From IMG/VR virus record IMGVR_UViG_2671180631_000013: DNA of 33,040 bases. One strand, 5' to 3'. The stretch comes from a virus (Duplodnaviria > Heunggongvirae > Uroviricota > Caudoviricetes). Position 1 is the stretch's first letter; every line of letters starts with the position of its first letter. Of this stretch, positions 3,001 through 6,000 are shown one piece after another. The position numbers were made by a program.

Positions 3001-6000
3001 AGCAGAGAACGGAGCTGTCTTTTTCAGTTTGAGAGTGGCGGTGTTATCTGCGTGACCTGGTTCATCAATAGTACCCAGGTTAAGAACACTGACGGCACGC
3101 ATATTATCAGCATCGATAAAGCAGCGGGTGCCTTCATCTGCAAGATCTTTAGAATAACGAGTAAAGTCATCGATGCTGGCAGTGGAAAGCGCACCACGGA
3201 AACGGAAGCGATTTAAATTTAATTTTTCCAGATCATGAATGCGGAAATTCTCAGGCAATGCCACAGCATCGGCACCAATCTTACTGATAATTTCATTAAC
3301 ACCCTGAGCAGAAATAAGGGCATGGATTTGATTAATTGCGGTTGCGTCTAAGTTCTGAGACATAATAAGTCCTCACTATATAAAGATATTCAGTGATGAG
3401 ATAAATAATCGGTTAATTAAGAACGATATTAATGACCTGCTGCGCGGAGTTTTCCGTCAGGTTCACCGGCAAGAGTCAGTAATTGTCCCTGGTCTTCCTG
3501 CAGAATAGTCAGGCGACCACCGCGATTGACATACATCGGCGTTTCGGTGGTGTCTTCTTCGGAAATTTTCCCGCGGTTAGTCGGGCGAACATATGAGAGT
3601 TTGTGTTTGATTTTCACACGGTTCTCATCAAATGGTTCGATTTCCAGGTTGAGTGAGACCTTACCTTTGGTTTTCGTGTTCATCACACCGGAAGCGACTT
3701 CACTGAGAACTGCGCCGATTTTGGTTTCAAATACGCCGCCGTCCAGCTCCCCAATAAATGCCTGCACATCAGTACTGCGTTCGCTAGCCATTTTGCTGCT
3801 CCTAATCATATCGACCCTGCAAGGTCGGTTGGTTTCTCCACAAAACAGAGAAGAACACCTGCGGTGGCAGCCGCCCGGATGGATTTGGTTATGAGCCCGT
3901 CGTCCGGTGATGCTCTTCTCTGTTTTGTAAAAAGAGCGGTACCAGCCGGAAGCAAGTGTACAAACTGGTACCGCCAAAGCAGTGGCTGTTGTGGTGACCG
4001 GTGCTGATCTCCGGCTTGCGGTTATTTCAGACTCTCACGGGCGTTTAATTGCCCCGCCGAACAGCTCTTTTCCGCATTAGCTGCAATGTCTTTCGCGCAT
4101 CAGCCTGCGCATTCACCACAACGCTGAGAGCACTTAGCCAGTTACGGCACCACACTTTGTCGCGGTTCCATAAATGTCCTCATCGTTGCACCCTGGTCTC
4201 TTCCCAGGCGTCAAACCGAATCGCCACGCTGGTTAGGCGTCTTATCAGCATCATCATTGACTTGCACATTCCGGCTACCTGGTTTGTTTGCCCGAGCAAG
4301 GAGTGGATTGTCCCCTTTAACGTCCCCAGACCGCTAACGACGCATGTGCCATACGCCGTGTTACAACCAAATTTTGTTTAATCTTGCCTGTGCTGTGTTT
4401 CTTTTAGATACATTATGTATCCCAAAGGTACATTGTCAAGTATAAAAAAACCTGCCGAAGCAGGTTATAAATATTGATTAGGCCTTTATTATGTATCTTC
4501 TTGGTTTTCCTGAGAAAATCACTGTACCAATTATAGAGCAATTACCGTTAATCTTAATGTAAGGCTCAGGCCAGTTTGGGTTTAATGCTTTGAGATAACG
4601 CTGTGTTCCATCTTCTATCAACCGCTTGAAGGTGGTTTCGCCTGTATCGTGCATCAATGCAATAACGTCGTCACCGTGGCAGGCAGGGACTTCAGGATCA
4701 ACAAAAATCATGTCTCCCGGGCGGTACTCATCAATCATTGAATCACCAATCACCCGCAAGATATAAGTCATTTCGCCACAGGGTACAGGGCAGGGATAAG
4801 TTTCTGCTGTGCTCAAATCAACCTCAGAATAGCCAACTTCTTTCCATGCTCCGGCCTGTACCCATGATATGACAGGGACTAACGTTATTTGTTTGTTAGT
4901 GATTGAAACGTCAGGTTTTTTTGTGATGTTCGTTGTCTGGTGTTCTTGATCAAGCCATCCGACAGGCAGGTCGAAACATTTTTCGATGTGCCGTGCCATG
5001 CTGTCACCGATATTTTTAGTTGCACCATCTCCCATAAACCTGCTGGTCTGGGTTGGCTCGCGATCAATCATGGTGGCAAAGGAAGAATTCCCGCCAACAC
5101 CATCTCTCAGTTTTCTGGCGTTAGACCGCCGGATGTCATGGACTGTTTTCATAAAGAAATTAAAACCTTTGTACCGATAAGGTACAAGTATCTTGAAGGT
5201 TCATCTCAATCATGTAATATGTATACCGGAGGTACATATTGTATGAAAGCGTATTGGGACTCTTTAACCAAAGAACAGCAGGGTGAGTTGGCCGGAAAAG
5301 TTGGCTCAACACCAGGCTACTTACGGCTGGTTTTCAATGGTTATAAAAAAGCCAGTTTTGTGCTGGCTAAAAAACTTGAGCAATGCACGTCAGGTGCAAT
5401 TACGAAATCTGACTTAAGACCGGATATCTATCCGAAAGATTAACAGAACACCTTCAATTTTTAACCACAGAACGATGAGGCTAACCGTGGGTAAGCATCA
5501 CTGGAAAGTAGAAAAACAGCCTGAGTGGTACGTGAAAGCTGTCAGAAAAACTATCGCGGCGTTGCCGGGGGGTTACGCTGAAGCTGCTGAGTGGCTGGAT
5601 GTAACAGAGAACGCTTTATTCAACCGCCTTCGTGCAGATGGCGATCAGATTTTCCCGCTGGGATGGGCAATGATTTTACAGCGCGCGGCTGGCACTCACT
5701 ACATTGCGGATGCTGTCGCACAGTCTGCTGGTGGGGTGTTTGTATCGCTTCCTGAAATTGAGGAAGTAGAGAACGCCGATATAAACCAGCGCCTGCTGGA
5801 AGTCATCGAACAGATCGGGAGTTACTCAAAGCAGATTCGTTCGGCAATCGAAGATGGGGTAGTGGAGCCACACGAGCAGACAGCAATTAATGATGAGTTG
5901 TATCTGTCAATTTCGAAGCTCCAGGAGCATGCAGCACTGGTCTACAAAATCTTTTGCGCTCCAGAAAAGAGTGACGCCCGCGAGTGTGCAGCTCCGGGCG

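Follow-up and report, generated by a model that had tools for sequence, protein, structure and literature searches.

The stretch of DNA analyzed here is IMG/VR virus record IMGVR_UViG_2671180631_000013 (33,040 nucleotides (nt), referred to as the window). Judged from its sequence it is a lambdoid prophage of the SfV/mEp460/cdtI/Ayreon type. We focused on positions 3978-4477, an interval located between the stop codon of the cI-like repressor gene and the yfdP-like gene. A previous sequence-only reading had described this interval as an apparently non-coding spacer with operator-like motifs, placed where lambda carries rexAB, and had suggested a decayed cargo slot, a small RNA (sRNA) locus or an extended leftward operator region (O_L). 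The interval was found to hold a predicted leftward promoter (pL) with its operators and, downstream of these on the minus strand, a series of candidate RNA elements that we term module A, hairpin S and module B, the last of which has the shape of a transfer RNA (tRNA). Two further hairpins, T1 and H2, lie between module B and the yfdP-like gene (Table 1).

Table 1. Predicted features around the 3978-4477 interval, in order of position in the window
Feature	Position	Strand	Basis and details
yfdQ-like gene (DUF2303)	2539-3363	-	next after the yfdP-like gene
yfdP-like gene	3429-3791	-	first leftward gene; ATG at 3791, 120 amino acids (aa)
Ribosome binding site (RBS) of the yfdP-like gene	3803-3799	-	AGGAG
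H2 hairpin	3833-3934	-	fold; about 100 nt, near-perfect stem of about 25 bp
T1, intrinsic-terminator-like hairpin	3929-3975	-	fold; GGCGGUACCAG...CUGGUACCGC then UCUUUUUAC
RNA module B	3991-4119	-	alignment A4 of 86 cores
Hairpin S	4120-4188	-	alignment A3; CAACG..GAGGACAUU / AAGUGCUCUC..CGUUG, variable tip
RNA module A	4190-4372	-	conserved 24-mer, alignment A3
O_L operator	4395-4413		2 mismatches; covers the expected transcription start
pL, sigma-70	4412-4439	-	consensus scan; -35 TTGACA 4439-4434, 16-nt spacer, -10 CATAAT 4417-4412
O_L operator	4415-4433		0 mismatches; exactly between pL -35 and -10
Intrinsic terminator of the cI-like repressor gene	4449-4466	-	terminator scan; AACCTGCTTCGGCAGGTT and T run
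cI-like repressor, Peptidase_S24 (S24-type)	4478-5152	-	Pfam
O_R operator	5169-5187		0 mismatches
O_R operator	5186-5204		2 mismatches
O_R operator	5219-5237		1 mismatch
Cro-like helix-turn-helix protein	5243-5443	+	
CII (CP76)	5475-6038	+	

Promoters and terminators were called by consensus scans only. The predicted pL has 11 of 12 consensus matches, is the best promoter-like site within 3300-5500 and lies directly after the cI terminator. A promoter identical to pL, likewise after an identical cI terminator, was found in SfV, and the terminator element is also annotated in Ayreon and SfV. Transcription from pL is expected to start near position 4405. In lambda, rexAB is located between cI and pL. 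Nothing lies between the cI terminator and pL in the window, and most of 3978-4477 is downstream of pL. Since pL adjoins the cI terminator, the interval is read as the transcribed early-left leader, i.e., in the position of nutL and N and not in that of rex as had been assumed. The leader is approximately 614 nt long, from about 4405 to the ATG at 3791. In SfV the identical pL is followed by orf33 with a terminator, then by a B-like element and then by the same T1/H2/yfdP leader. SfV orf33 (98 aa, hypothetical; locus 789-1268) has its own terminator and stands there instead of modules A-S. The site just downstream of pL thus has the appearance of a variable, cargo (moron)-like slot, which in the window would be filled by RNA modules.

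The palindrome GATACATTATGTATC was found at 4407-4421 as a perfect match and occurs nowhere else in the window, and GGTACATTGTCAAGTAT was found at 4427-4443. A first operator model, GRTACATNATGTAYC, gave only two relevant matches and was superseded by a 19-bp inverted repeat, WTGTAYC-N5-GRTACAW. When the 33 kb were scanned with this refined model allowing at most two mismatches, six matches were obtained, five of them at the two early promoters, and the motifs now exceeded chance. Because the sites occur at both early promoters, they are read as the predicted O_L (two sites within 4395-4433, about 40 bp) and O_R (three sites). The palindrome at 4407-4421 is made up of the adjacent half-sites of the two O_L operators. 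The motifs at 4407-4443 and their relationship to O_R therefore stand as previously described, now as O_L, whereas an extended O_L holds only in so far as O_L is present, as it spans no more than about 40 bp. The proposed operator site at 3957-3972 is instead one arm of the conserved terminator hairpin T1. The only operator-like site with at most two mismatches outside O_L and O_R was located at 1378-1396 (ATGTACCGATGCGATATGT), within a PrtN-like gene (1250-1531, minus strand). The perfect O_R operator, TTGTACCGATAAGGTACAA (5169-5187), was also scored, on the minus strand and immediately upstream of the start of cI, as a terminator-like hairpin with a T run; this call is probably an artefact of the palindrome.

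The interval was previously considered to be non-coding, and we agree. The open reading frame (ORF) at 4049-4381 on the plus strand starts with TTG, and neither this ORF nor the small minus-strand ORFs matched a Pfam family. No open frame was maintained on either strand, with stops in all frames in the homologues from typing phage 9, P1, Tyrion, SPC32H, mEp390 and IME207. Nothing is annotated under the match in the RefSeq E. coli records listed, and the GenBank records of mEp460, Ayreon and cdtI have small ORFs there as dubious hypothetical proteins.

Positions 3780-4378 were found to be 88-99% identical in mEp460, cdtI, Ayreon, 2H10 and several Stx2 phages, which have different immunity regions, and the conserved block begins about 27 nt downstream of the expected pL start. 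This identity, together with the RNA covariation described below, contradicts the suggestion of a decayed cargo slot or unconserved spacer. The similarity to the leader is mosaic and resolves into modules. Modules A and B together were present in 1606 of 5426 complete E. coli genomes (about 30%), 461 of which cover at least 80% of the query. The segment 3985-4378 has 100% identity to positions 4312780-4313173 of E. coli 6409 (NZ_CP010371.1). Module A has approximately 80% identity to P1, P7, D6, SJ46 and the Uetakeviruses (typing phage 9, TL-2011b, SPN1S and Tyrion), and the S|B junction, about 40 nt, was found again with approximately 90% identity in dozens of unrelated phages of Klebsiella, Salmonella, Erwinia, Edwardsiella and Cronobacter. 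The cdtI, 2H10 and Stx2c phages, where the leader match is in two pieces, probably carry a variant of B.

The invariant 24-mer of module A, AACCAGGTAGCCGGAATGTGCAAG, was found exactly in more than 120 IMG/VR contigs, and a 23-mer from the 5' part of module B exactly in more than 120 viral contigs, many of them from soil and water metagenomes. A 20-mer from the 3' part of B gave 53 genome matches, about 38 of which were judged to be true elements and the rest chance matches in coding sequence. True B elements came from Gamma-, Beta- and Alphaproteobacteria, Magnetococcales, Phycisphaerales, Verrucomicrobiota and one metagenome-assembled genome of Syntrophomonadaceae. Since B sequences were gathered by exact anchors, the prevalence is a lower bound and the invariance of the loops is partly constrained by design; the 5' 23-mer and 3' 20-mer scans each left the other half of B free to vary. 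In Alcanivorax sp. UBA4485 (contig DGNT01000046.1, about 7829-7848) the 3' half of B, CCGGAGATCAGCACCGGCCACCGCATCCCCTTC, is a spacer between CRISPR repeats (GTTCCCCGCACCTGCGGGGATAAACCG), which suggests that this host gained immunity against a B-carrying invader.

Module A and hairpin S together comprise positions 4372-4120, about 250 nt. The helices of module A are located at 4358-4338, 4334-4326 with 4282-4271, 4240-4226 and 4208-4192, and the 24-mer is at 4284-4261. The 3' strand of hairpin S adjoins module B in the window and tRNA-Arg in the Uetakeviruses. In an alignment of 18 sequences (A3), 92.4% of the cells of a 38-pair structure were paired, compared to 30-43% when the partners were slid. 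Thirteen pairs were changed on both sides, and the covariation score was reached by none of 500 shuffles. Examples are CCUGG/CCAGG replaced by CCUCG/CGAGG or GCCGG/CCGGC, and ACGC/GCGU replaced by GGGA/UCCU. Hairpin S itself (helices 5-6) was 78-86% paired, with four compensatory pairs. The GUUG located 5' of B (4120-4123) can pair either with CAAC at 4185-4188, the base of S, or with CAAC/AAC 3' of B (3988-3990); these alternatives could possibly form a structural switch or junction. The lambdoid phage HK633 and the unrelated Klebsiella phage UPM 2146 (Ackermannviridae) have in common, within stretch 1200-1520 of both loci, a conserved 5' domain of about 250 nt upstream of S-B that is not module A. 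The family thus appears to join alternative 5' domains to a common S-B core.

Module B has the general layout of an NNGGUG/CACCNN closing stem, an AAU linker, a first hairpin GCGC[AGGCUGAU]GCGC, an insert, an AA linker and a second hairpin GCCGG[AGAUCAGCA]CCGGC that runs directly into the 3' strand of the closing stem. In the window the closing stem, P1, is formed by 4119-4114 with 3996-3991 and can be extended to 4122/3988, the first hairpin is at 4110-4095 and the second, GCCGG[AGAUCAGCA]CCGGU, at 4015-3997. The loops GCUGAU and AUCAGC are complementary. Among 86 distinct cores 98.4% of positions were paired, a value inflated by the parsing filter of alignment A4 (at least 5/6 and at least 4/5 pairs), which does not inflate the diversity of pair types; eight compensatory pairs were found, and none of 500 shuffles scored as high. 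The outer two stem positions each have four to five pair types, and both hairpin stems show compensatory changes. Positions -1 and +1 pair in 142 of 150 cases, so the stem extends outward; the closing stem is 7-9 bp long and stacked on the 5-bp hairpin. A centroid fold likewise recovers P1 and both hairpins. The insert is 10-357 nt long (median 72), which at the lower end is not enough to form an arm. The 77-nt insert of the window (4094-4018) is nearly unchanged in Klebsiella phage IME207. The 3' flank of B is rich in A and C and has no fixed CCA. At up to three mismatches B is present in a single copy in the window, with none downstream of PR.

Variants of B are located at the same place in Ayreon (locus 3215-3320, minus strand) and SfV (locus 1355-1480). 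The closing stem, GUGGU(G)/CACCAC, is the same, and the hairpins and loops differ. The loops of the Ayreon variant could still pair (AUGG/CCAU), which would amount to loop-loop covariation. In IMG/VR 3300009075_000209 (3947-4060) a tRNA-like sequence (Rfam tRNA, 34 bits, model positions 5-66) is situated inside the B insert, with an intrinsic terminator directly after it.

Searches with Rfam 15 (including C4, GOLLD, ROOL, YrlA and tmRNA) gave nothing above noise for 3300-5400 and 3975-4380 at E-values up to 10. Twelve diverse loci gave only tRNAs at the gathering score, and a minimal B of 62 nt gave nothing. A kinship with rydB was considered and rejected, as the likeness is limited to an 18-nt hairpin, GCCGGAGAUAAGCGCCGG, scoring 13.7 bits against a cut-off of 50 bits, and the K-12 rydB locus lacks the 5' half of B. 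In E. coli K-12 RydB (NC_000913.3, 1764713-1764780) this hairpin agrees with the second hairpin of B (3998-4015 in the window) at 16 of 18 nt and likewise adjoins a closing stem, CCCC...GGGG, with no counterpart of the first hairpin of B. The likeness may be due to chance or be a remote relic.

The fold of 3795-3990, which covers T1 and H2, has an energy of -86.4 kcal/mol (z = -7.0), and this was the only stretch that stood out thermodynamically. A hairpin equivalent to T1, in which the stems are fully different yet still complementary and the CYUUUUYACA tail is unchanged, was found behind the B-like element of SfV, ST64B and mEp390. It also follows tRNA-Arg in typing phage 9, where the 14-bp stem was called by the terminator scan, and in SPC32H. 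As T1 is found after B or after tRNA-Arg, the arrangement A-S, then B or tRNA-Arg, then T1 can be regarded as a self-contained unit. A terminator-like site was found within 150 nt after B in 36% of 158 distinct contexts, compared to 4.9% of 990 random positions from the same loci, a 7-fold difference. The string CGCUCUUUUUACAA was considered as a boxA and rejected; it is the U tract of T1 and is poorly maintained as a boxA in ST64B and mEp390. H2 is maintained in SfV, ST64B and Ayreon. In the window it is followed by a small hairpin, the RBS and the yfdP-like gene. H2 is a candidate RNase III site.

ARAGORN was run on 91 contexts of module A, which fell into a lambdoid, a P1-like and a Uetakevirus class. 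The lambdoid class had no tRNA nearby, and a yfdP-like gene was located downstream in 48 of the 91 contexts. In the P1-like class (about 20 contigs) a tRNA-Ile2(CAU) ends 3-5 nt before A; this is trnI in the C1-controlled ban operon, where A-S is present without B or T1. In the Uetakevirus class (at least 20 contigs) A-S lies beside tRNA genes and between virion genes, and the 3' edge of S coincides exactly with the start of a tRNA-Arg(UCU), which is where B starts in the window. The genus Uetakevirus itself is divided at this place, with B in Tyrion and tRNA-Arg in SPC32H, BUCT711 and typing phage 9. B and tRNA-Arg have a common 5' junction after AGCGUU. In IME207 and Gungnir39, B was found just upstream of tRNA-Arg(UCU) or tRNA(CAU), and a tRNA on the same strand follows B within 300 nt in 9% of contexts, often Arg-UCU or CAU. 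Many unrelated phages have B alone. B was also found in virulent phages, in large non-coding gaps, and in the late leader of HK633, with PR'/qut on one side and the holin gene on the other. The 46 distinct ORFs downstream of B consisted of 38 singletons and four clusters with two members each. Since the downstream genes are unrelated, the reading of B as the leader of a single gene family was rejected.

The gene order of the leftward operon is syntenic with that of SfV, mEp460 and ST64B. The product of the yfdP-like gene, the first gene behind pL, matched no Pfam family, and none of the left-operon ORFs tested gave an N-like match. At its far end (1-989, plus strand) the left operon is bordered by two overlapping ORFs of 190 and 139 aa, which run opposite to the operon, and 1568-2401 (minus strand) contains an ORF of 277 aa that matched no Pfam family. 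These ORFs may represent accessory or defence cargo.

Based on these observations we find it reasonably, but not strongly, likely that the stretch consists of O_L/pL and, behind it on the minus strand, a non-coding RNA gene cassette under repressor control, with a transcript that is probably processed like that of a tRNA gene. The sRNA locus of the sequence-only reading would then be correct with respect to a non-coding RNA, but the predicted product is not a small sRNA; it is a modular cassette of about 475 nt with its own terminator. Derepressed pL would make an RNA of this length, ending mostly at T1. B would be handled as a tRNA, with RNase P or other 3'-end processing acting near the S|B junction, the same junction as that of tRNA-Arg, and this processing would release A-S and B as stable RNAs. 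The role of B could be that of a handle for processing and stabilisation, or of a scaffold that carries the insert. Transcripts extending past T1 would probably be cut in H2 in an RNase III-like manner and express the yfdP/yfdQ operon. A conserved host partner, such as the tRNA/translation machinery, is suggested by the near-invariance of the B loops across the hosts sampled, both the proteobacterial ones and the few others. A wider proposal is tentative and, in our view, more probably wrong than right: B and S may be the core of an undescribed and very widespread class of phage RNA, a tRNA-shaped scaffold with locked loops, a hypervariable insert and often a variable 5' domain (such as A), made early to engage a conserved host machine (RNase P, the tRNA/translation apparatus or RNA polymerase) or to display or stabilise an RNA cargo.

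A number of observations weigh against a tRNA-like RNA gene. The folding energy of the single sequence was unremarkable for B (z = -1.7) and no better than that of shuffles for A-S (z = -0.02). RNAalifold favours an invariant long-range pairing, GCACAU/AUGUGC, that competes with the first hairpin of module A. The loop-loop pairs of B are invariant, except for G-U and one flanking position, and are supported by complementarity and not by covariation. ARAGORN found no tRNA gene in the window and the Rfam tRNA model had no match there at E-values up to 10; B has neither an anticodon arm nor a consistent CCA, and its closing stem is often longer than 7 bp. In the Uetakevirus locus a sigma-70 promoter was not detected upstream of the cassette. 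Finally, a location directly behind an early promoter and ahead of a terminator would suit a cis-acting antiterminator equally well, given that the phage lacks an N homologue.

Such a cis-acting control leader, where the nascent A/B RNA modifies or guides RNA polymerase past T1 and later terminators in a put-like manner or as an attenuator, is the most serious alternative, and one we consider unlikely rather than improbable. It is compatible with the RNA-gene reading. The RNA is directly downstream of pL and directly upstream of a conserved terminator, the left-operon ORFs tested include no N-like protein, and put-like RNA antitermination was suggested, as speculation, for related N-less lambdoid phages in a 2025 paper (PMC12315714). 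SfV has two terminators between pL and yfdP with the B-like element before T1, and the 7-fold enrichment of terminators after B agrees with such a role, as does the position of B in the HK633 late leader. A conserved target, for instance RNA polymerase, would agree with the near-invariance of the loops. However, no sequence or profile similarity to putL/putR was detected, and the window has a single copy, with none downstream of PR. A-S is found beside tRNA genes among the Uetakevirus virion genes and in the P1 ban operon without B and T1, and B was located also a short distance before tRNA genes and, in virulent phages, within large non-coding gaps. The HK633 operon is already served by the Q antiterminator, and tRNA-Arg can replace B at the same locus.

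The remaining alternatives are much less probable. An element acting at the DNA level, i.e., a sequence for recombination or at a module boundary, a target of satellites or integrases, or a signal used in replication or packaging, we regard as improbable. It would account for the strongly mosaic distribution, where the immunity module (cI, O_L and pL) is exchanged separately from the cassette, and for the presence of the same B allele in an unrelated Klebsiella siphovirus; tRNA-like sequences are also classic integration targets. On the other hand, the orientation to flanking tRNAs, promoters and terminators is always the same, compensatory changes preserve the stems while the loops stay fixed, and G-U pairs are found on the transcribed strand only (columns 104/120 and 130/183 of the A+S alignment, and the G-U variants of B). 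That 4049-4381 (plus strand) or the small ORFs of mEp460 and Ayreon encode a protein is very improbable. These ORFs do exist and were annotated by the depositors, in cdtI as well, but apart from the TTG start and the lack of a Pfam family, homologues at 72-82% identity are interrupted by stops in all frames and contain indels of lengths not divisible by three, the RefSeq records listed annotate nothing, and the substitutions follow RNA pairing. Hardly credible, and the least probable of all, is a neutral spacer or the remnant of a decayed cargo slot. The content of the slot that separates pL from the T1/H2/yfdP leader does differ between phages, as seen from orf33 and its terminator in SfV; this reading is nonetheless already contradicted by the identity of 88-99% across phages with different repressors, by exact 20-24-mers common to more than 120 viral contigs each and to prophages of several phyla, and by the covariation.

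On the evidence obtained, all of it comparative, a large group of lambdoid phages without N (SfV, mEp460, cdtI, Ayreon and several Stx2 phages) have an early-left leader that consists of autonomous structured RNA modules, and these modules are common to P1, the Uetakeviruses and many environmental phages. The stretch is carried by about 30% of complete E. coli genomes and has no name in the RefSeq records listed or in Rfam. A processed and stable RNA would be a new abundant early phage product with a host target, while a cis-acting RNA would be a new solution to N-independent antitermination; either way, the question of how early transcription gets past terminators without N becomes open to direct tests, using defined elements of phages that can be cultivated. 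The tRNA-shaped module B would be a natural counterpart of engineered tRNA scaffolds. Should the proposal of a widespread class hold, the E. coli spacer would be one tractable example of it, inducible from pL in Ayreon and mEp460. A full-text search for conserved 18-20-mers in DNA and RNA spelling yielded no paper in the library searched, and no description of the element was found in the literature on tRNA-like phage RNAs, P1 trnI/ban and catalogues of structured RNA. The element may be present, unnamed, in a catalogue of 10,006 viral candidate RNAs (PMC10690425).

Compared to known systems, the arrangement resembles the lambda early-left leader in having a repressor-controlled leftward promoter, operators of the O_R type, a long untranslated leader, a terminator to pass and a long hairpin just before the first gene, in lambda the RNase III hairpin before N. 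It differs in that the window has no N gene among the left-operon ORFs tested and no boxB, the only boxA-like string being the T1 U tract, and in that the leader of approximately 614 nt consists of autonomous RNA modules also found outside lambdoid phages. With HK022 putL/putR, which act independently of protein, the window has in common a structured RNA just downstream of an early promoter of an N-less lambdoid phage with terminators after it, and the logic is possibly the same. However, a putL+putR profile searched against the window with nhmmer gave a best E-value of 4.9, outside the leader, and blastn gave only words of 7-15 nt. The cassette is present in one copy and not two, it is much larger and modular, and its modules are found beside tRNA genes in non-lambdoid phages.

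C4 of P1/P7 and CI of P4 are phage RNAs processed by RNase P, and species 1 and 2 are stable RNAs of the T4 tRNA cluster. Like the proposed cassette these are phage non-coding RNAs that are co-transcribed with tRNAs or shaped like them and have ends made by the tRNA processing machinery, and the P1 ban operon with module A is repressor-controlled, as is predicted for the window cassette. They differ from it in that there was no match to the Rfam C4 model, and in the kissing loops, hypervariable insert and much wider host range of B. GOLLD and ROOL are likewise large, ornate and unexplained RNAs of phages and prophages, often near tRNA genes; no covariance-model match was obtained, the elements found here are mainly from Proteobacteria, and they form a chain of smaller modules and not one large fold.

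Relative to a canonical tRNA, B lacks the anticodon arm, which is replaced by the hypervariable insert, the T-loop and D-loop consensus and a regular CCA. The order of helices is nevertheless that of a tRNA: a closing stem, a 3-nt linker, a 4-bp hairpin with an 8-nt loop, a central region and a 5-bp hairpin. The stack of 7 + 5 bp (6 bp and the -1:+1 pair) is also the same, all three stems covary, and B takes the genomic slot of tRNA-Arg; the loop-loop contact would, in this model, replace the elbow. The operator-promoter part is ordinary lambdoid biology, and the RNA cassette, while a member of none of the systems compared, appears to resemble the known tRNA-like structured non-coding RNAs of phages.

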